Below, one piece after another: positions 9,250 through 62,800 of a stretch of DNA of 64,000 bases. Origin of the DNA: Escherichia coli (lineage in GTDB: Bacteria; Pseudomonadota; Gammaproteobacteria; Enterobacterales; Enterobacteriaceae); NCBI RefSeq assembly GCF_044647545.1, contig NZ_CP172818.1. One strand, written 5' to 3'. Below the pieces are notes generated by a model, which ran no database searches, was not told where the DNA came from, and saw only the letters and a list, made by a program, of their open reading frames with translations. The stretch's first letter is position 1, and each line of letters begins with the position of its first letter. A program made the position numbers and the translations under genes.

Positions 9250-9359
9250 GTTTATTCTCTTTCTGAATATAAAAATGAACCCTCAACGCTTCCCTCAATG
9301 TTTCGGGAGCCATGCGGGTTCAATCATACACGGGAAGCGAGGCGCTTCCCATCACGTTA

Positions 9360-10478
9360 TTATTTTTCAACCTGCTGAACGTCAATTCGACGCGCTTCGT
9401 CCAGCTGACTGGCTTTCGCACGAATGCGCGCTTCCAGCTGGTCGATCATATCGTTGTTGTCCAGACGGTCTTTGCGCACGCCATCTTCATAGAGGCCGCT
9501 TTTCTTGTTGCCGCCGGTGACGCCGAGTGTAGAAACCAGCGCCTCACCTGGGCCATTCACCACGCAGCCGATAATCGAAACGTCCATCGGAGTGATGATA
9601 TCTTCCAGGCGTTGCTCCAGCGCGTTAACCGTACCGATAACATCAAACTCCTGACGCGAACAGGTTGGACAGGCGATGAAGTTGATCCCGCGCGAACGGA
9701 TACGCAGCGATTTCAAAATATCGAAACCGACTTTGATCTCTTCGACCGGATCGGCCGCCAGCGATACGCGCAGCGTGTCGCCGATGCCTTCAGACAGCAG
9801 CAGACCTAAACCAATGGCGGATTTAACCGCCCCGCTGCGCGCACCACCCGCTTCGGTGATCCCCAGATGCAGCGGCTGATCGATCTGTTTTGCCAGCAAA
9901 CGATAAGACTCAACAGCGAGGAAGACGTCAGACGCTTTCACGCTGACTTTGAACTGATCGAAGTTCAGGCGATCGAGATGATCAACATGACGCATGGCGG
10001 ATTCCAGCAACGCCTGCGGCGTCGGTTCGCCATACTTTTCTTGCAGATCTTTTTCCAGCGATCCGGCGTTAACGCCAATACGGATCGGAATGTTTTTATC
10101 GCGCGCACAGTCAACCACCATGCGAATACGCTCTTCATTACCGATATTGCCAGGGTTAATACGCAGACAATCGACGCCGTATTCCGCTACTTTCAGCGCA
10201 ATGCGATAGTCGAAATGGATGTCAGCCACCAGCGGCACGTTAACCTGCTGTTTGATGAGTTTGAACGCTTCTGCCGCGTCCATCGTCGGTACGGAGACAC
10301 GGACGATATCAGCGCCAACACGTTCCAGCGCCTTGATTTGATTGACCGTTGCTTCGACGTCTGTCGTACGCGTATTGGTCATGGACTGTACGGCGATGGG
10401 AGCACCATCGCCAATCGGCACATTCCCAACGTAAATACGTGTTGATTTTCTACGTTGAATTGGAGCCTGGTTATGCAT
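9360..10478 (-). CDS. ispG: 4-hydroxy-3-methylbut-2-en-1-yl diphosphate synthase (IspG/GcpE)
   Basis: 372 aa, [36 protein letters not shown]...; C-terminal CPTCSR iron-sulfur motif. Confidence 0.95.
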
Positions 10479-22007: not shown

Positions 22008-22023
22008 GCTTTTTACAGGCAAT

Positions 22024-22053
22024 AAAAAACCGCCGAATTTGGCGGTTTTTTAT
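22024..22053 (+). terminator. Rho-independent terminator downstream of sseA
   Basis: Hairpin AACCGCCGAATTTGGCGGTT followed by a T tract, 17 nt after the sseA stop. Confidence 0.6.
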
Positions 22054-22469
22054 TGCTGGTCTGTTCCCTCAATATACCAAACACCCACGACACAAACTCC
22101 TAACCTCTTTCAACAAAAAATTTCTTTATTATATCCACTGCGGCCCTTTCCGCCAACTTAAAAAATGTTCGGTAATAAAATAACCTGGCTTATTAGTCCG
22201 AATTCGGACAAATATAAACAAATCAGCTCAATATTAAAAATACTAATCGGTAAAAGATATTACTTAAACGTGTAAATTCACTTTCTTTAAACAACAAAAA
22301 ACCGCCAAAATCAGGCGGTTTTTTGTTGCTGGTTTGGTTCGCGGCCTTTCCAGCAGATTGGCTTGTGTTGCATGAGCAACGCAGGTGCTTCACAGCAAAG
22401 CAATACTCGCCAGTAACTCTCTTTTTGTCAAGCGAAAGAGAGTAATCATTGTTTATTTAGCGTATTATC

Positions 22470-22757
22470 GACACCGGCCCTTTCCGCCGTCTCGCAAACG
22501 GGCGCTGGCTTAAGGAAAGGATGTTCCATGGCCGTAAATGCAGGTGTTTCACAGCGCTTGCTATCGCGGCAATATCGCCAGTGGTGCTGTCGTGATGCGG
22601 TCTTCGCATGGACCGCACAATGAAGATACGGAGCTTTTGTATCGTACTTATTGTTTCTGGTGCGCTGTTAACCGAGGTAAATAATAACCGGAGTCTCTCC
22701 GGCAACAATTTATTGGTGGTTAACAACCTTCAGAACAGCAGGTAAGCCCGAATGCCG
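22470..22757 (+). ncRNA. ryfA: RyfA-family small RNA locus; boundaries approximate
   Basis: Position between sseA and sseB matches where ryfA sits in E. coli K-12. Ends at hairpin ATGCCGCCCTTTGGGGCGGCAT plus ATTTT (22731-22757). 5' end not determinable from sequence alone. Confidence 0.35.
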
Positions 22758-22776
22758 CCCTTTGGGGCGGCATATT

Positions 22777-23553
22777 TTAGATTATCCGGTTCTGTTTAAA
22801 GTCACGCAAAAAACCACCCCAGCGACGTTCATAGAATGGCACAATATGTTCGGTAATAAAGTGGCTAATTCCTTTTTCCCCTTTTTTCACCTGACAAATA
22901 TCGATGGGTTCATCGCCAGGTAATGTATCGGTCGCTACACTTCCCGCCGCCTGAATAATTTCTTCGATATCACCATCGGCTTCAATGCCAATAAGTAAAT
23001 TAGGCTGTGCCTCTTTGTTCTCTTTAATTGAACAAATAAAAGCACGCTTCACCGGCTTAATAGTTTTAAATAAGGTGGTGAGAGAATCAATCATTTGTGC
23101 TGGTGGCTCTGCGACTTCCGATAATATCAGCGATTCACCGCCCTCCAGTACTTCCTGGCTGCTCAGCGGATTTCCTTCTTCACCAATCAACAAACTGATT
23201 TCACGCGGCATAAATTCTTTACCGGTTGGCAGTTTGGCATTAAGGAAGAGCGTTTCGCCAAGGGTCATCTCAAACAATGTGCGAACGGGCATTACGACAA
23301 ATGCCTGTTCGTCTTCAACCGCCTGTTGAAGTGCTTCTAACGAGGTAAAAAAAGGAATGACGCTGGTGCCGTCTTCTTTTTCCCAGTGCTGTAAATCAAG
23401 CGCGCTATCTTCAACCACAGCCTCGCCCTGCGCCGCCGTACCCGGCACCCAGACGGTGGATTCCAGTAGAGTACGGAAAAAGGCCGGGCGGTGCGCCGGT
23501 TCGGTTGCTGCTTTTTCCAGCAGGTCTTCAAGTTCATTTTTTGTTTCGGACAT
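22777..23553 (-). CDS. sseB: Enhanced serine sensitivity protein SseB
   Basis: Track ORF 22777..23562 contains MSETKNELEDLLEKAATEPAHRPAFFRTL... after a 3-codon extension; 258 aa. Confidence 0.88.
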   Translation of the reverse strand: MSETKNELEDLLEKAATEPAHRPAFFRTLLESTVWVPGTAAQGEAVVEDSALDLQHWEKEDGTSVIPFFTSLEALQQAVEDEQAFVVMPVRTLFEMTLGETLFLNAKLPTGKEFMPREISLLIGEEGNPLSSQEVLEGGESLILSEVAEPPAQMIDSLTTLFKTIKPVKRAFICSIKENKEAQPNLLIGIEADGDIEEIIQAAGSVATDTLPGDEPIDICQVKKGEKGISHFITEHIVPFYERRWGGFLRDFKQNRII

Positions 23554-24979: not shown

Positions 24980-25027
24980 TTTAGTTATCCTTATTCGTTT
25001 AACGCAAAACGGGTCCCCCCAGCCCAT

Positions 25028-25228
25028 TTACTCGGCCTCGTCAAGCCAGACCAACAAAATCGCTTCGAGGATTTTTTCGTTGGATGCCTGCGGGTCGTCG
25101 TCGAAATCTTCCAGATCGCAAATCCACTGATGCATATCGGTGAATCGAACCGTTTTCGGATCAAGATCGGGATACGCATCGTACAGTGCTTCGCCAATTT
25201 CGCGGCTATCGGTCCACTTAAGTCCCAT
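25028..25228 (-). CDS. iscX: Fe-S cluster assembly protein IscX
   Basis: 66 aa, [47 protein letters not shown]... Confidence 0.9.
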
Positions 25229-30023: not shown

Positions 30024-30134
30024 TGCTCTATAAACTCCGTACATCACTCAATGCAAGGAACCAGGCTACCGGCTGGATGTACGACCGTGTTTACGGAGTG
30101 TTTAGCACTCCGGCCTGATTCTGAATTCTTTTTA

Positions 30135-30798: not shown

Positions 30799-30873
30799 TT
30801 GTCGGATGCGGTGTGAACACCTTATCCGACCTGGACCAAGCCTGATAAGACGCGTTAAGCATCGCATCAGGCA
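30799..30873. repeat. REP element pair
   Basis: TGTCGGATGCGGTGTGAACACCTTATCCGACC and GCCTGATAAGACGCGTTAAGCATCGCATCAGGCA between the iscR promoter and the trmJ stop. Confidence 0.65.
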
Positions 30874-52354: not shown

Positions 52355-52410
52355 TGGCGCAATAACGTAGAAAGGCTTCCCGAAGGAAGCCTACAGATTA
52401 ACCGTTTCGC

Positions 52411-55625: not shown

Positions 55626-56960
55626 TCATTCCTTGAAATCGTTTGCATCCAGCTCGTGTCGGGAAAGCAGTTTATAAAATTCTGTCCGGTTGCGCCCCGC
55701 CATTCTCGCCGCGTGGGTGACGTTGCCTTTGGTAATTTGCAGCAGCTTACGCAAATAGTTGAGTTCAAACTGATTACGTGCCTCAACAAAGGTTGGCAGC
55801 GCCGTATTTTCACCCTCCAGCGCCTGCTCTACTAATGCATCACTAATCACCGGAGATGAGGTCAGCGCCACGCACTGTTCAATCACGTTGACCAACTGGC
55901 GTACATTACCCGGCCAGCTAGCGGTCATCAGGCGTTTCATTGCATCGGTGGAGAACGCGCGGACAAACGGTTTATGTCGCTCTGCCGCCTGGCGCAACAG
56001 GTGATTTGCCAGTAGCGGAATGTCTTCTGTGCGCTCTGCCAGAGCCGGAATTTTCAGGCTGACAACGTTGAGGCGGTAATAGAGATCTTCACGGAATTCC
56101 CCGCGCGCCATCGCTTTTGGCAGGTCGCGGTGAGTGGCGGAAATAATCCGCACGTCGATATCAATATCGCGGTTACTGCCCAGCGGGCGCACTTTACGCT
56201 CCTGCAACACGCGCAGCAGTTTGACCTGCAACGGTGCAGGCATATCGCCAATCTCATCGAGAAATAGCGTACCGCCTTCCGCCGCCTGGAATAAACCTTC
56301 GCGATTGCTGACAGCGCCAGTAAACGCACCACGCGCATGACCAAACAGCTCCGACTCCAGCAATTGCTCGGGCAATGCGCCACAGTTAATAGCAATAAAT
56401 GGTTTGCTGTTGCGCGGGCTGGCGTTGTGGATAGCCTGGGCGAAAATCTCTTTCCCGGTGCCGCTCTGGCCGTTAATCAAAACGCTAACGTCTGATTGCG
56501 CCACCAGCCGCGCCTGTTCCAGCAAACGCAGCATCAGCGGGCTGCGGGTGACAATCGCCTCGCGCCAGCGTTCGTCGGTGGCTGGCGCGGATTGTTCCAG
56601 CGCATCGTCAATTGCCTGATATAGCGCGTCTTTATCGACAGGCTTGGTGAGAAAACTGAACACGCCCTGCTGTGTTGCAGCAACGGCATCGGGAATAGAA
56701 CCATGCGCGGTAAGAATAATTACTGGCATTCCCGGCTGCACTTTCTGGATTTCAGCAAACAGCTGCATACCGTCCATTTCATCCATCCGCAGGTCGCTGA
56801 TGACTAAATCTACTTTTTCGCGATTCAGTACCCGTAATCCTTCAGCGCCACTTTCCGCCGTGACCACGCTGTAGCCTTCGCTGGTCAGGCGCAGGCCAAG
56901 CAGTTTCAGCAATCCCGGATCGTCATCGACCAATAATAAATGCGCAGGTTTATGGCTCAT
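55626..56960 (-). CDS. glrR: Sigma54-dependent two-component response regulator GlrR (QseF)
   Basis: Track ORF 55626..57062 contains [25 protein letters not shown]... after a 34-codon extension; 444 aa; receiver, AAA+ (GESGTGKE-like, GAFTGA) and HTH domains. Confidence 0.9.
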
Positions 56961-57663
56961 CAGGAGTGACCTCATCGGTGGATGGCGCGGGCTTTTCACT
57001 CTCGTGCGGCGTATCCGGCGAGAAATTTCCAGCCGGTTTGCGGGTCGAGAGCTGGCGTTCAATATCGGTCAGGTTTTCCAGCTTGCGGGTAGTGAGTTCC
57101 AGTTGCTGTTGTAGAACGTGATGTTGCTGGCGCAAAGTATCCAGCTCGCTGTCGCTGGACTGCTGGAGTTTACTGTAGCGTTGGCGCTCTTCCGCCAGTT
57201 GCAGTTGCAGCGCCTGACCGTCGCGCCAGAGTTGATACAGAGGGCGAACCTGTGCCGGGATCTCGGTACTTAGCGCATCAATGCGCGCGACCAGCTGGCG
57301 GCGCTCATACGGCGTAATTTTGGCGTCGGCGAGCAAAATCCCTTGTTTAAAGGTATTTTGCCAGCTGCCGTCGTCATATTGGCGGGCTTGCTGACGCGAC
57401 TGCGCAGGCATTAAACGATCAGCACAATCCATCGCCCGCAGCCAGTAAAGCGGATTGGTTTCGGTTGATTTACCTTGCAGCGCCCAGATGTCGCTACATT
57501 CAGTAGAAAGATAGTCAGCCAGTTGATAAACCGGAATTTTTTCTTCTGCTGGCGTATCAATGGCTGGCTTATTGTGACTCTGCACGCAACCCAGCAATGC
57601 CAGACATGGCAGCCCTGCCAGCCACAGCCGTCGGGGCAATAATCGTTGAAAAATGTGTCGCAT
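56950..57663 (-). CDS. qseG: Outer-membrane lipoprotein QseG (YfhG)
   Basis: Track ORF 56950..57669; start taken at MRHIFQRLLPRRLWLAGLPCLALLGCVQS (lipobox LLGC). 3' end overlaps the glrR start by 11 nt. Confidence 0.85.
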   Translation of the reverse strand: MRHIFQRLLPRRLWLAGLPCLALLGCVQSHNKPAIDTPAEEKIPVYQLADYLSTECSDIWALQGKSTETNPLYWLRAMDCADRLMPAQSRQQARQYDDGSWQNTFKQGILLADAKITPYERRQLVARIDALSTEIPAQVRPLYQLWRDGQALQLQLAEERQRYSKLQQSSDSELDTLRQQHHVLQQQLELTTRKLENLTDIERQLSTRKPAGNFSPDTPHESEKPAPSTDEVTPDEP

Positions 57664-57827: not shown

Positions 57828-59255
57828 TTATTTCGTGTTTTTCGACGACGGTAATTCAATGCGGAAACAAACATCTTGCCCGCTCTCGTCGACCAGATAC
57901 AGTTCCCCTTGCATACGGCGAATACAATCCCTGGCAATGCTTAATCCCAGACCGCTGCCCTTCACCGCCCCTTTTCGCTGGTGGCTTCCCTGAAAAAAGG
58001 GTTCGAAGATCATGGCGCGTTCCTCTTGCGGAATGGGCGTGCCTGTATTGATGACATCAATATAAACCCGCGCACCATGTAAACTGCTGCGAAGGCAAAT
58101 GTTACCGGATTCAGCCCCGTAGTGCACCGCATTGGAGTAAAGATTATCCAGTACGCTCATCAGCAGCATTGGCTCCGCCAGGCAAGCTGTTGCTTTGAGA
58201 TCAACGTCGGTATGCATCATTTTAGCCCGTGCGGGCAGGCTATGAGCAGAAACTACTGTCTCCACCAGCGGTGCTAACTCAACATTCTCCAGTTCCACCG
58301 CACTGTCCGCTTGTTTACGGTTGTAATCAAGCAGTTGTTCGATCAGTTTTTGCAAATTGCGGCTGCTGCTATCAAGGATGCTCACCACCTCTTTTTGCTC
58401 GGGCGTAAGCGGCCCGACAACCTGGTCAGCCAGTAATTCAGTGCCCTCGCGCATACTCGCCAGCGGGGTTTTTAATTCATGAGATAAATGTCTTAAAAAT
58501 TGATGGCGTTGGGATTCCAGCCATGACAGGCGCTCACTTAACCAAAGAATACGTTGCCCAACCGAGCGTAACTCGCTCGGTCCACTGAACGAGACGCTAT
58601 TGCCCAGAGAACGCCCTTCCCCCAGCCGGTTGATCATGCGCTCGATATTTTTCACCGGCCCGATAATCATCCTCGTGAAAAGTAGCACCATCACCAGACT
58701 CACCAGAAATAGCACCAGCGATTGCCAACCAAAATATTGCCCACGTTCGGCGATTTCACGCTGAAGTTGCTGCCCACGAGAGAACACCACTGTGCGCGTG
58801 GCCTGCACCATTTCGGTATTGGCACTGGCAAAGGCTTCCAGACGCGCGGCGGCAGCAGCATCGGGACCGCTGTTGTTACACTGAAGTTGAGCCAGATTAT
58901 TCAAATCCTGACGTAATGCCTGGTAGAGTTTATCGTCCGGCAGCACGCCTGCGTGGGCATCGAGCATTTCGCTATAACGCTTGCGCTGGCTTTGATAAAC
59001 CTTCGCAAGCGTAGGGTCGTCCAGCACGCAATACTGACGGTAGCTGCGCTCCATTTCCAGTGCCGCGTTGGTCATCGCTTCACTGCGCCGGGCATCAATA
59101 AGCGTAGTGCGGTTAACCAGCGCCGCCTGATCGCTAAGCGCATTCAGGCTTTGCCAGGCTTGCCATGCCAGCACCAACAGGGGTAGCAGAATCAGCAAAA
59201 ATGCCAGCATTACCAGTTGTCGTAATGAGCGGGGAAAAACGGGCCAGCGTTTCAA
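57828..59255 (-). CDS. glrK: Sensor histidine kinase GlrK (QseE)
   Basis: Track ORF 57828..59318 extends upstream into the glmY terminator. Probable start is a TTG at 59253-59255 reading (M)KRWPVFPRSLRQLVMLAFLLILLP..., giving 475 aa; HAMP, HisKA (SHELKTPL) and HATPase domains. Confidence 0.85.
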   Translation of the reverse strand: MKRWPVFPRSLRQLVMLAFLLILLPLLVLAWQAWQSLNALSDQAALVNRTTLIDARRSEAMTNAALEMERSYRQYCVLDDPTLAKVYQSQRKRYSEMLDAHAGVLPDDKLYQALRQDLNNLAQLQCNNSGPDAAAAARLEAFASANTEMVQATRTVVFSRGQQLQREIAERGQYFGWQSLVLFLVSLVMVLLFTRMIIGPVKNIERMINRLGEGRSLGNSVSFSGPSELRSVGQRILWLSERLSWLESQRHQFLRHLSHELKTPLASMREGTELLADQVVGPLTPEQKEVVSILDSSSRNLQKLIEQLLDYNRKQADSAVELENVELAPLVETVVSAHSLPARAKMMHTDVDLKATACLAEPMLLMSVLDNLYSNAVHYGAESGNICLRSSLHGARVYIDVINTGTPIPQEERAMIFEPFFQGSHQRKGAVKGSGLGLSIARDCIRRMQGELYLVDESGQDVCFRIELPSSKNTK

Positions 59256-59311
59256 GGTGTTACTCTCGTCAGACGCGAATAGCCTGATGCTAACCGAGGG
59301 GAAGTTCAGAT

Positions 59312-59497
59312 ACAACAAAGCCGGGAATTACCCGGCTTTGTTATGGAATAAGGCGGTGCCTAACTCGACGTTTCGCCCGAGGGTTGATATAGCTACGCTG
59401 ATATCAGAAGTTGGACGGCAGGCACCTTGTTGTGCGTCATTCGAATTTTATGTAGCACGTCCCGAAGGGGCTGACATAAGTCGGTGAATGAGCCACT
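59312..59497 (-). ncRNA. glmY: GlmY small RNA (regulator of the GlmZ/glmS cascade)
   Basis: Minus strand reads AGTGGCTCATTCACCGACTTATGTCAGCCCCTTCGGGACGTGCTACATAAAATTCGAATGACG...AAAGCCGGGTAATTCCCGGCTTTGTTGT, matching GlmY as I recall it; intrinsic terminator hairpin at the 3' end. Not in the ORF track. Confidence 0.8.
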
Positions 59498-59508
59498 GGT
59501 TACTATTA

Positions 59509-59524
59509 TGCAGTAACTGTGCCA
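59509..59524 (-). promoter_or_regulatory. Sigma54 (-24/-12) promoter of glmY
   Basis: Minus strand TGGCAC-AGTTA-CTGCA (GG-N10-GC spacing), with the GC element about 13 nt upstream of the glmY 5' end. Confidence 0.7.
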
Positions 59525-59612
59525 ATAAAGAAAATAGTTTGGTAACGTACTGATTGTACGCTGTTTTGAAGGGGTTATGGCTTCTTCGCTATTTGGCTGT
59601 AAATCAGCCACT

Positions 59613-59726
59613 GTGTCGCTAAAAAGAGACAACTTAAGATAAACTTATTAGATGCCATTAAAATCAATTAGTTAAGTGTCGCCAGAAAGCGACACGGTAA
59701 ACCACCCATTGTCGTGATTTACAGAC
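59613..59726. promoter_or_regulatory. Three GlrR-type activator binding sites upstream of glmY
   Basis: Three 18-bp inverted repeats of form TGTCN10GACA: TGTCGCTAAAAAGAGACA (59613-59630), TGTCGCCAGAAAGCGACA (59676-59693), TGTCGTGATTTACAGACA (59709-59726), at about -116 to -229 from the glmY 5' end. Confidence 0.65.
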
Positions 59727-59735
59727 ACAAAAAAG

Positions 59736-59760
59736 CTCCCGAAGTTGGGAGCTTATAATA
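59736..59760 (-). terminator. Rho-independent terminator of purL
   Basis: Minus strand hairpin GCTCCCAACTTCGGGAGC followed by TTTTTTGT, about 50 nt downstream of the purL stop. Confidence 0.6.
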
Positions 59761-59811
59761 GTAGTTGGTGCTTAATGCCTCATCCGGCTGCAAAACCAAT
59801 GGGTTGACGGC

Positions 59812-62800
59812 TTACCCCAACTGCTTACGTGCATTGCGGAAAATACGCATCCACGGCCCATCCTCGCCCCAGTTTTCCGGATGCCAGGAGTTACTGACAG
59901 TACGGAAAACACGTTCCGGGTGCGGCATCATAATGGTGACTCGACCGCTTTCAGTCGTGACCGCCGTAATACCATTCGGAGAACCGTTCGGGTTAGCCGG
60001 GTATGTTTCAGTGACTTTGCCGAAGTTATCGACATAGCGCAGTGCCACCAGCCCTTTGCTTTCCAGTGCCGCCAGATGCGCCGCATCACGCACTTCCACG
60101 CGCCCTTCACCGTGAGAGACAGCAATCGGCATCTGCGAGCCCACCATCCCCTGCAACAGCAGCGACGGGCTTTGGGTTACTTCTACCAGACTGAAACGCG
60201 CTTCAAAGCGATCGGAGGTGTTACGCACAAAACGTGGCCACAACTCGCTACCAGGGATCAGTTCACGCAGATTAGACATCATCTGGCAACCGTTACATAC
60301 CCCCAGCGCCAGCGTTTGCGGACGGTGGAAGAAGGTTGCAAACTCATCGCGTACACGGTCATTGAACAGGATAGACTTCGCCCAACCTTCACCGGCACCC
60401 AGTACATCACCGTAGGAGAAACCACCGCACGCGACCAGGGCGTGGAAATCCTCCAGGCCCGTGCGTCCAGCCAGCAGGTCGCTCATATGCACGTCGATAG
60501 CATCGAAGCCTGCACGGTGGAAAGCTGCCGCCATTTCAACATGCGAGTTCACGCCCTGCTCACGCAGTACGGCAACTTTCGGACGTGCGCCAGTGGCAAT
60601 ATACGGTGCTGCCACATCTTCGTTGATATCGAACGACAGTTTCACATTCAGGCCCGGATCGGCGTCGTTTGATTTCGCCTGGTGCTCCTGGTCAGCACAC
60701 TCCGGGTTGTCACGCAGACGCTGCATCTGCCAGGTAGTTTCTGCCCACCAGACACGCAACGTGGTGCGGCTTTCGCTAAATACAGTCTGCCCGTTGGCAG
60801 TAATCACAAAATGGTCACCGGAAACCGCCTGCCCTACATAATGGACGCAATCCGCAAGCCCATGCTGCGCCAGTACGGACTCGACCGCTTCACGGTCAGC
60901 GGCACGAACCTGAATCACCGCACCCAGTTCTTCGTTAAACAACGCCGCCAGGCGATCGTCACCCAGAGAGGCGATATCTGCGTCAATGCCACAATGACCA
61001 GCAAAGGCCATTTCCGCCAGCGTTACCAGCAGGCCGCCATCAGAGCGGTCGTGATATGCCAGCAGCTTACGTTGTGCAACCAGCGCCTGAATCGCGTCAT
61101 AGAAGCCTTTCAGTTGCGCAACATCGCGTACATCTGCCGGTTTGTCGCCAAGCTGACGATAAACCTGCGCCAGCGCCGTTGCGCCCAGCGCGTTATTGCC
61201 TTTGCCCAGATCAATCAGCAGTAATGCGTTATCTTCGGTAGAAAGCTGCGGCGTGATGGTGTGACGCACATCTTCCACACGGGCAAATGCAGAAATCACC
61301 AGCGACAGCGGCGACGTCATTTCGCGCTCTTCGTTACCTTCCTGCCAGCGGGTTTTCATCGACATAGAGTCTTTACCCACCGGGATCGTCAGGCCCAGCG
61401 CCGGACAAAGTTCTTCGCCCACAGCTTTAACGGCTTCATACAGGCCCGCATCTTCACCAGGGTGGCCTGCCGCCGCCATCCAGTTGGCGGAAAGTTTAAT
61501 GCGTTTGATATCGCCAATCTGTGTTGCGGCAATATTGGTTAACGCTTCACCGACCGCCAGACGGGCAGAGGCGGCGAAATCCAGCAGCGCAACCGGCGCA
61601 CGCTCGCCAATCGCCATCGCTTCGCCGTAGTAGCTATCGAGGCTGGCGGTAGTGACCGCGCAGTTAGCGACCGGCACCTGCCACGGACCCACCATCTGAT
61701 CGCGCGCTACCATGCCGGTTACGCTGCGGTCACCAATGGTCACCAGGAAAGTTTTCTCCGCCACGGTCGGCAGGTGCAGCACGCGTTTCACCGCGTCAGC
61801 AATGGTAATCCCTTCACGAACCAGCGCATCACCCTTCGCTTTCAGCGTTTGTACTTCGCGGGTCATCTTCGGCGTTTTACCAAGCAGTACGTCCAGCGGC
61901 AGATCGATCGGCTGATTATCAAAATGACGATCGTGCAAAGAAAGATGTAATTCTTCGGTGGCCTCGCCAATCACCGCGTATGGCGCGCGCTCACGCTTAC
62001 ACAGTTCGTCAAACAGCGGTAACTGATCGGCAGCAACCGCCAGCACGTAGCGTTCCTGGGATTCGTTACACCAGATTTCCAGCGGGCTCATGCCCGGTTC
62101 GTCGCTCAGGATATCGCGCAGTTCGAATTTACCGCCGCGCCCGCCGTCGCTCACCAGTTCCGGCATGGCGTTAGAAAGACCGCCTGCGCCAACGTCGTGG
62201 ATAAACAGGATTGGGTTGGCATCACCAAGCTGCCAGCAACGGTCGATCACTTCCTGGCAGCGACGCTCCATCTCCGGGTTGTCGCGCTGTACGGAAGCAA
62301 AGTCGAGGTCCGCATCAGACTGACCAGATGCCATGGAAGACGCCGCGCCGCCGCCAAGACCGATGTTCATTGCCGGGCCGCCGAGAACGACCAGCTTCGC
62401 ACCAACGTTGATCTCGCCTTTTTGTACGTGATCGGCGCGAATGTTGCCGATCCCACCCGCCAGCATGATCGGTTTGTGATAACCGCGCAGCTCTTCGCCA
62501 TTGTGGCTGTTCACTTTTTCTTCATAAGTACGGAAGTAGCCGTTCAGTGCCGGGCGACCAAATTCGTTGTTAAACGCCGCGCCGCCCAGCGGGCCTTCGG
62601 TCATGATGTCCAGCGCGGTGACAATGCGCTCAGGCTTACCGAAATCTTCTTCCCACGGCTGTTCAAAGCCCGGAATACGCAAGTTGGATACGGAGAAACC
62701 GACCAGACCGGCTTTCGGCTTTGCGCCACGCCCGGTGGCACCTTCATCGCGGATTTCACCGCCGGAACCGGTCGCCGCGCCCGGCCACGGAGAAATCGCC

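Follow-up and report, generated by a model that had tools for sequence, protein, structure and literature searches.

The small RNA gene glmY of Escherichia coli K-12 (b4441, formerly sroF or tke1; Reichenbach 2009, as cited in PMC3045617; Göpel 2011) is transcribed in dependence on RpoN, phosphorylated GlrR and IHF (PMC3045617). A sigma-54 element is the published GlrR-dependent promoter, and an overlapping sigma-70 promoter with the same start site gives basal expression (PMC3045617). Mutagenesis and EMSA demonstrated the function of the GlrR operators, with ABS2 and ABS3 essential and ABS1 dispensable for promoter activity; two IHF-like sites flank ABS3, and the sigma-54 promoter requires IHF, which binds to the fragment (PMC3045617). 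According to the same work, glmY invariably sits upstream of glrK-yfhG-glrR, and in Yersinia, Serratia, Pectobacterium and Dickeya the overlapping sigma-70 promoter is absent and glmZ, too, is transcribed from a sigma-54 promoter (PMC3045617).

In K-12, the 184-nt GlmY RNA is converted by 3' processing to an active form of 148 nt; it does not itself base-pair with glmS but sequesters RapZ and so blocks cleavage of GlmZ by RapZ/RNase E, and GlmZ, together with Hfq, activates glmS (PMC4152352). RapZ free of glucosamine-6-phosphate (GlcN6P) stimulates phosphorylation of QseE/QseF, which GlmY-bound RapZ cannot do (PMC7073468). The products of glrK, qseG and glrR have also been described as the QseE/QseG/QseF "three-component" system, in which QseG is required for kinase activity; transcription of qseE begins 25 bp ahead of its initiation codon, and a separate, weak sigma-70 promoter just past glmY serves the qseEGF operon (PMC6075780).

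The window analyzed here is a 64-kb stretch of E. coli DNA. Its gene order, with hmp on the plus strand, glnB-glrR-qseG-glrK-glmY-purL all on the minus strand, and mltF on the plus strand, is the same as in K-12. Almost certainly, the locus is E. coli glmY in its standard form, with GlrK, QseG and GlrR intact; the mechanism is transferred from K-12. The gene, its position and its architecture are the same as in K-12. The locus is already known, matches the accounts of Göpel 2011 and Khan 2020, and represents no new biology; the earlier note on this DNA had likewise recognized a known system, and the gene and the architecture are indeed those of K-12 glmY/glrK-qseG-glrR.

Identity, extent and termination of the GlmY RNA

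An Rfam scan of the whole window identifies a match to RF00128, GlmY_tke1, at 59350-59497 on the minus strand, with a score of 145.2 bits (E 2.4e-32; the gathering score of the family is 33 bits), and the alignment runs over the full length of the model (positions 1-163 of 163). The earlier note had proposed this very search and had named a failure of the covariance model to hit 59312-59497 as the outcome that would speak against GlmY; the GlmY model matched. Alignment with K-12 b4441 places the primary transcript at 59314-59497 on the minus strand (184 nt), with the A at 59497 as +1, so that the claim of a complete minus-strand GlmY RNA of about 186 nt with its terminator is right to within 2 nt. 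The gene is identical to b4441 at 182 of the 184 nt; the two substituted bases, 59444 and 59381, are both unpaired in the predicted fold. The covariance-model match delimits a GlmY core of 148 nt (59350-59497, minus strand) that, judging by its length, appears to coincide with the processed, active form of the RNA; the remaining 38 nt (59312-59349), which lie beyond the model, represent the terminator hairpin region.

At -66.7 kcal/mol, the minimum free energy fold of glmY is better than those of all 200 shuffled sequences (z = -4.8). The predicted structure consists of a 5' stem-loop, a central branched stem-loop, which is the RapZ-binding element of GlmY, and the terminator. In this fold, the intrinsic terminator hairpin occupies 59312-59344 on the minus strand, with a 14-bp stem (ACAACAAAGCCGGG / CCCGGCTTTGTTGT) and the loop TAATT, and its sequence is identical to that in K-12.

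GlmY and GlmZ are homologous members of the same Rfam clan (CL00011), and in a permissive rescan of 59000-60000 a lower-scoring GlmZ match overlaps the position of the gene, so the question arises whether the RNA is GlmZ or a GlmZ-like paralog pairing directly with glmS, rather than the decoy GlmY. Within the clan, the GlmY model scores highest here and prevails in clan competition, and the permissive rescan returns no family besides the GlmY clan match. Furthermore, the RNA is nearly identical to K-12 glmY and adjoins glrK, the conserved glmY position, whereas glmZ adjoins hemCDXY and, in E. coli, has neither a sigma-54 promoter nor GlrR sites (PMC3045617). On the strength of synteny, identity to K-12 glmY and clan competition, a GlmZ identity is very improbable and was rejected in favor of GlmY.

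The glmY, glrK, qseG and glrR genes share one strand, no more than 58 nt separate the 3' end of glmY from the start of glrK, and a report on Proteus mirabilis describes glmY-qseE-qseG-qseF as an operon (PMC8745638). By analogy, glmY and qseEGF could form one operon in which read-through of the terminator results in positive autoregulation of GlrK, QseG and GlrR. A simple terminator scan of 59200-59850 is compatible with leaky termination in that its calls are limited to the terminator of purL and a fortuitous hairpin on the plus strand; the glmY terminator is missed because its T run is interrupted (TTTGTTGT). In K-12, however, lacZ fusions and RT-PCR revealed virtually no read-through and no autoregulation, qseEGF being transcribed from its own promoter (PMC6075780), and both the terminator, with its strong stem, and the whole glmY-glrK spacer are identical to those of K-12. 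A common operon is therefore unlikely in this strain, and separate transcription of glmY and qseEGF is the preferred reading. Counting back from the TTG codon at 59255 by the published distance places the qseEGF transcription start at about 59280, and the putative sigma-70 promoter at about 59280-59315 on the minus strand; we infer that the -10-like hexamer is TAGCAT at 59287-59292. Neither this promoter nor the processing to 148 nt was among the features listed in the earlier note.

Promoter elements, GlrR operators and IHF sites

A scan of the window with the pattern TGGCAC-N5-YTGCA yields a single match in 64 kb, TGGCAC-N5-CTGCA (TGGCACAGTTACTGCA), at 59509-59524 on the minus strand, immediately upstream of glmY; the canonical -24/-12 promoter that had been pointed out is thus present and is the only one that the window matches. 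The GG and GC dinucleotides of the element are located at -26/-25 and -14/-13, respectively, relative to +1 at 59497, that is, the element has the -24/-12 form and lies at the right distance from the transcription start. Compared with the consensus TGGCAC-N5-TTGCW, the -12 element CTGCA shows one departure (C for T), which is identical in K-12, and the entire element is unchanged across six E. coli alleles.

The -12 element is overlapped by the hexamer CATAAT (59505-59510, minus strand), which was read directly from the sequence as the -10 element of the sigma-70 promoter known from K-12. It had not been listed in the earlier note. A generic promoter scan of 59200-59850 calls no sigma-70 promoter; CATAAT escapes it because there is no good -35 element, in line with the published description of this promoter as weak. 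The silence of the generic scans does not count against the sigma-70 promoter or the glmY terminator because their rules are too strict for a weak CATAAT and an interrupted T run.

The pattern TGTC-N10-GACA occurs exactly three times in 64 kb, and all three occurrences are exact matches, packed into 118 bp just upstream of glmY at a distance of 117-230 bp from +1. These GlrR/QseF sites, given here without strand, are ABS1 at 59710-59727 (TGTCTGTAAATCACGACA; -230 to -213), ABS2 at 59677-59694 (TGTCGCTTTCTGGCGACA; -197 to -180) and ABS3 at 59614-59631 (TGTCTCTTTTTAGCGACA; -134 to -117). Shuffling of the window leads to an expectation of 0.75 matches on average, and by our estimate the probability that three operators fall within 118 bp is below 1e-6, far beyond chance. 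The sites had been characterized as three evenly built operators: their number and shared build hold, but the spacing is uneven, 33 bp from ABS1 to ABS2 and 63 bp from ABS2 to ABS3, start to start (about three and six helical turns). The feature end set at 59726 falls one base short of the end of the first operator, which is at 59727.

Exact matches to the IHF consensus WATCARNNNNTTR are found on both sides of ABS3, namely AATCAATTAGTTA at 59662-59674 on the plus strand, in the gap between ABS2 and ABS3 (-177 to -165), and AATCAGTACGTTA at 59543-59555 on the minus strand, in the gap that separates ABS3 from the promoter (-58 to -46). The promoter-proximal site is unchanged across the six E. 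coli alleles. These two sites, too, are additions to the features noticed previously. All three operators, both IHF sites and the sigma-54 element are contained in the span from -238 to +22 that corresponds to the published reporter fragment (PMC3045617). Farther upstream, the purL terminator hairpin called by the terminator scan (59733-59754, minus strand) forms the boundary of the glmY control region, and the purL stop codon is at 59812-59814.

The glrK-qseG-glrR genes and the annotation of the purL-glrK interval

The glmY gene is located downstream of purL and upstream of glrK-qseG-glrR. Full-length genes without internal stops encode GlrK, QseG, GlrR, GlnB and PurL, and the encoded proteins are close to identical to those of K-12, with no substitutions in GlnB (112 aa) and eight in PurL (1295 aa). 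The glrK (qseE) gene for the sensor histidine kinase, at 57828-59255 on the minus strand, starts with TTG and encodes 475 aa, 474 of which are the same in K-12 (the exception is H119N). Its product matches the Pfam families HAMP, HisKA and HATPase_c and retains the H-box HELKTP at residue 259, that is, it has the composition of a histidine kinase; no GlrK-specific NCBIfam model reaches its cutoff, and an identical RefSeq record annotates the gene as qseE.

The qseG (yfhG) gene at 56950-57663 (minus strand) encodes an outer-membrane lipoprotein of 237 aa that differs from the K-12 protein by three substitutions (N29S, E129D and H230D). The protein passes the NCBIfam equivalog NF007997 with 359 bits against a cutoff of 234, matches the Pfam YfhG lipoprotein family PF13942, and has an N-terminal lipobox-like motif, ...ALLGC; the gene is sandwiched between those for the kinase and the regulator. 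The first 11 nt of glrR (qseF; 55626-56960, minus strand) lie within the end of qseG. This gene encodes the sigma-54-dependent response regulator (444 aa, with the single substitution N269D relative to K-12), which passes the equivalog NF011695 with 982 bits against a cutoff of 763 over residues 1-444. Pfam identifies the Response_reg, Sigma54_activat and AAA lid domains, and both D56 and the GAFTGA motif (residue 211) are retained; the C-terminal HTH has no separate Pfam match at E<=0.001. The protein combines a REC domain, a sigma-54 AAA+ domain and a C-terminal DNA-binding region, and residue 269 is the only position that differs from K-12.

Thus, the cognate glrK-qseG-glrR genes do lie immediately downstream of glmY, as had been stated, with 1, 3 and 1 residue differences from K-12, respectively, and relative to the published three-component system (PMC6075780) the proteins are full length, at least 99% identical and preserve the motifs. 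The further claim that the whole GlrKR-to-GlmY module is intact stands for the step from GlrK, QseG and GlrR to glmY; RapZ, GlmZ, glmS, rpoN and ihfA/B lie outside the window, which holds only GlmY from the RapZ-GlmY-GlmZ-glmS circuit (PMC4152352, PMC7073468).

By analogy with K-12, phosphorylated GlrR would bind the three ABS, with IHF bending the DNA, and its AAA+ ATPase would open the sigma-54 holoenzyme complex and raise glmY transcription, while basal transcription, beginning at the same position, would come from the sigma-70 promoter. The RNA, trimmed at the 3' end to 148 nt, would then act as a decoy that sequesters the RNase E adaptor RapZ; GlmZ would thereby escape cleavage and, with Hfq, activate glmS translation, restoring GlcN6P for cell-envelope synthesis. 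GlcN6P-free RapZ would stimulate QseE/QseF phosphorylation, and binding of RapZ to GlmY would put an end to this stimulation, closing a negative feedback loop. Past the glmY terminator, qseEGF would be expressed from its own weak sigma-70 promoter.

The earlier note had further stated that the open reading frame track extends glrK through the glmY region. Mechanically, two reading frames do exist here, and the track on which that statement was based apparently showed the extended glrK. As worded, the statement is not supported: in the glrK frame, the longest ORF begins with the TTG at 59318 (496 aa) and shares no more than the final 5 nt of glmY, and no glrK-frame ORF traverses glmY because the frame is closed by a TAA at 59328-59330, inside the terminator loop. 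Both in K-12 and in PGAP annotation, GlrK starts at the TTG at 59255 (475 aa), and the 21 codons added by the extension lie upstream of the published qseE transcription start, partly within the glmY terminator. A separate, unrelated ORF of 79 aa (59393-59632, minus strand) spans the 5' part of glmY together with the sigma-54 promoter, an IHF site and ABS3; Pfam gives no match for it, and it is regarded as spurious. Given the closed frame and the lack of a Pfam match for the 79-aa ORF, the readings under which the region would be protein-coding, either as an extended GlrK or through the 79-aa ORF, have a negligible likelihood and were dropped; an RNA gene with its control region accounts for the interval.

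The curated K-12 annotation includes a glmY ncRNA feature (b4441, 184 nt). In contrast, there is no feature under glmY in any of the PGAP RefSeq E. coli records examined, namely FDAARGOS_497 and 24 others that are spread over the identity ranking and four of which were opened directly. The warning that ORF-based annotation would miss or overwrite glmY is accordingly borne out in its first part, the gene being missed in PGAP records, but not in its second, given that no ORF overwrites the RNA. On ORF-only or PGAP-style tracks, the roughly 560 bp separating purL from glrK seem vacant or occupied by spurious ORFs, and a covariance-model pass would repair this gap in the annotation.

Conservation across species and variation within E. 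coli

A scan of one genome per species (GTDB set) with the pattern GCCTNNCGNCCA-N35-60-GAGTNAGGCNCCGCC matches at least 120 loci, all from Enterobacterales or unclassified metagenome bins. The promoter played no part in the selection of these loci because the pattern lies wholly inside the RNA. A glrK homolog is encoded downstream in 110 of the 120 listed loci, nearly always starting about 100-500 bp away. Most of the 10 listed loci without glrK have too little downstream flank to tell; three others (L067, L104 and L116), whose flank exceeds 2 kb, look like glmZ loci, and L067 and L116 share the promoter pattern of the Serratia glmZ loci. The consensus fold of 99 distinct GlmY sequences comprises 32 pairs, with 99% of the alignment cells paired and compensatory changes at five pairs, several invariant helices being fixed in part by the search pattern and carrying no weight.

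The promoter and operators were tabulated for the 107 listed glmY loci with at least 420 nt of upstream sequence, the window included. The pattern TGGCA[CT]-N5-NTGCW is present at a fixed offset in 106 of these. An exact-pattern count of the operators proved too low (Escherichia albertii seemed to have none) owing to variants of the form TGTC-N10-GACG, and the sites were recounted with up to one mismatch allowed. Under this rule, against a background of 0.29 sites per kb in the flanks, exactly three operators with spacings of 31-33 and 62-64 bp are found in 98 of the 107 listed loci, and the distance between ABS2 and ABS3 is 63 bp in 94 of these 98 three-site loci (among the matches listed). 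The 33/63 spacing in the window is the modal value among the listed loci. A sigma-54 element combined with three sites at these spacings is thus shared with the glmY/glmZ promoters of other Enterobacterales, Salmonella, Yersinia and Serratia included. The position of the cluster varies between genera: in Escherichia, Citrobacter and Enterobacter, ABS3 has an offset of -107 from TGGCA, compared with -122 to -145 in Yersinia, Serratia, Pectobacterium and Dickeya, where the cluster is 16-38 bp farther away.

These observations bear on the possibility that the three operator motifs and the -24/-12 match arose by chance and have no regulatory role. The motifs are short, and shuffling of the window produced three operators somewhere in 64 kb in four of 100 trials and one promoter match in 14 of 100. 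In the actual sequence, the three operators are confined to the one place where they are expected, the same number and spacing of sites recur in nearly all listed loci, the operators, unlike the spacers, do not vary within E. coli, and their function has been demonstrated in K-12. Conservation led to rejection of a chance origin, which is scarcely conceivable.

Within E. coli, the 571-bp locus (59250-59820) is 100% identical to the corresponding region of several complete genomes and is present in 5425 of 5426. Comparison of six E. coli alleles reveals no variable positions among the 54 nt of the operators or the 16 nt of the sigma-54 promoter, as opposed to 26 of 160 in the spacers; there are 3 variable positions in the 184 nt of glmY and 2 in the 26 nt of the IHF sites, with the motif preserved. 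Comparison with K-12 reveals no change in the operators, in either IHF site, in the sigma-54 element, CATAAT or the terminator, or in the glmY-glrK spacer, and the differences consist of the two unpaired RNA substitutions, a divergent spacer between ABS3 and the IHF site, and a few changes in the 3' region of purL and between ABS2 and ABS3. No large strain-specific insertion relative to K-12 is found near glmY, and only small indels occur elsewhere in the window. From the sequence comparison, the differences from K-12 appear to be neutral-looking polymorphisms.

The most concentrated of these differences lie in the spacer separating ABS3 from the proximal IHF site, where a minority allele (about 59556-59600) matches exactly in 87 of 5426 complete E. 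coli genomes, among them those of strains that probably belong to ST648/phylogroup F, such as IMT16316. This allele has about 11 substitutions compared to K-12, including a change of TATAAT to TACAAT at about 59554-59559; the TATAAT hexamer is present in the five other alleles examined and is lost here. All the varying spacer positions are outside every element of known function, and it is improbable that the minority allele changes glmY regulation in this lineage. If it did, it could act by altering IHF-dependent looping or by removing a cryptic upstream sigma-70 start, and could thereby retune glmY expression.

Altogether, glmY is a textbook small RNA under dual sigma-54/sigma-70 control by the adjoining two-component system, and the tabulation over about 100 species independently reproduces the promoter architecture published from 39 genomes.

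Colinearity with K-12 and other RNAs of the window

The window is colinear with positions 2631331-2695843 of E. coli K-12, with an identity of ~96-98.5%. Three intergenic points of the window, ~24992-25028 between pepB and iscX, 30800-30834 between iscR and trmJ, and 52392-52401 between yphH and glyA, lack ~130-180 bp that are present in K-12; these K-12 segments may be REP-type elements. The sseA-sseB intergenic region (22019-22778, plus strand), the K-12 counterpart of which holds timR, ryfA and timP, is rearranged in the window compared to K-12. Rfam matches to IS128 (22138-22338, 188 bits) and ryfA (22474-22778, 314 bits), both on the plus strand, are found here, along with a pair of terminator-like hairpins (22024-22063 and 22297-22336) that are 78% identical and lie 273 nt apart. 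Because K-12 2653352-2653549 aligns with 22292-22490 at only 92% identity, the alignment suggests that this region of the window contains ~230 bp that are extra relative to K-12. Two known RNAs lie where expected: the sroE sRNA (9269-9360, minus strand, 116.6 bits), which in K-12 too is located between hisS and ispG, and the iscRS stability element (30025-30134, minus strand, 136.5 bits).

Variation in the glmY control region

The spacer between ABS3, the GlrR operator nearest to the glmY promoter, and the proximal IHF site (59536-59613) is a minority allele, with an exact match (at least 99%) in only 87 of the 5426 complete E. coli genomes. It differs from K-12 by ~11 substitutions within ~45 nt; for example, the window has TACAAT at ~59554-59559, a hexamer that is a perfect TATAAT in K-12 and in four other E. 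coli alleles. In E. coli UTAK-6 (L127, NZ_CP157151.1 4208750-4209209), the CATAAT -10 hexamer carries a 1-nt deletion (CAT-ATAG), which would impair the sigma-70 promoter and bring the -12 element closer to +1.

In Escherichia albertii NBRC 107761 (L005), GACG replaces GACA in the right half-site at all three operator positions, and the third operator also has AGTC instead of TGTC. These variant operators lie ~200-330 nt upstream of glmY, and the DNA upstream of them is unlike the 3' end of E. coli purL; the control region may have diverged or been relocated. The locus of Candidatus Symbiopectobacterium sp. 'North America' (L059) is the only one of the 107 glmY loci among the matches listed without the TGGCA[CT]-N5-NTGCW pattern; the sequence at the position of the sigma-54 element is TAGCATGAATAGTGGA, and promoter decay in a symbiont genome may be involved.

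Three loci from Serratia and its relatives (L067, L076 and L116), captured by the GlmY RNA pattern, have no glrK downstream and look like glmZ loci. In all three, a match to the sigma-54 promoter is accompanied by one or two exact TGTC-N10-GACA sites; in L067 and L076, the second site is looser, TGT-N12-ACA. Outside Escherichia and Klebsiella, glmZ is likewise under GlrR and sigma-54 control (PMC3045617), and the predicted promoters and sites of these loci fit this published arrangement.

Annotation of glmY and the overlapping ORF

A glmY feature is absent from PGAP-annotated complete E. coli genomes in RefSeq (e.g., L001 and L125-L128): in all 24 RefSeq E. coli records sampled across the identity ranking, the annotation under the glmY match is 'None', and the gene (b4441) is annotated in the curated K-12 MG1655 only. 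In the window, a 79-aa ORF with a TTG start (59393-59632, minus strand) covers the 5' part of glmY, the sigma-54/sigma-70 promoter, the proximal IHF site and ABS3. A Pfam search with this ORF yields no match, and it is almost certainly spurious; ORF callers could place calls of this kind on top of the glmY sRNA.
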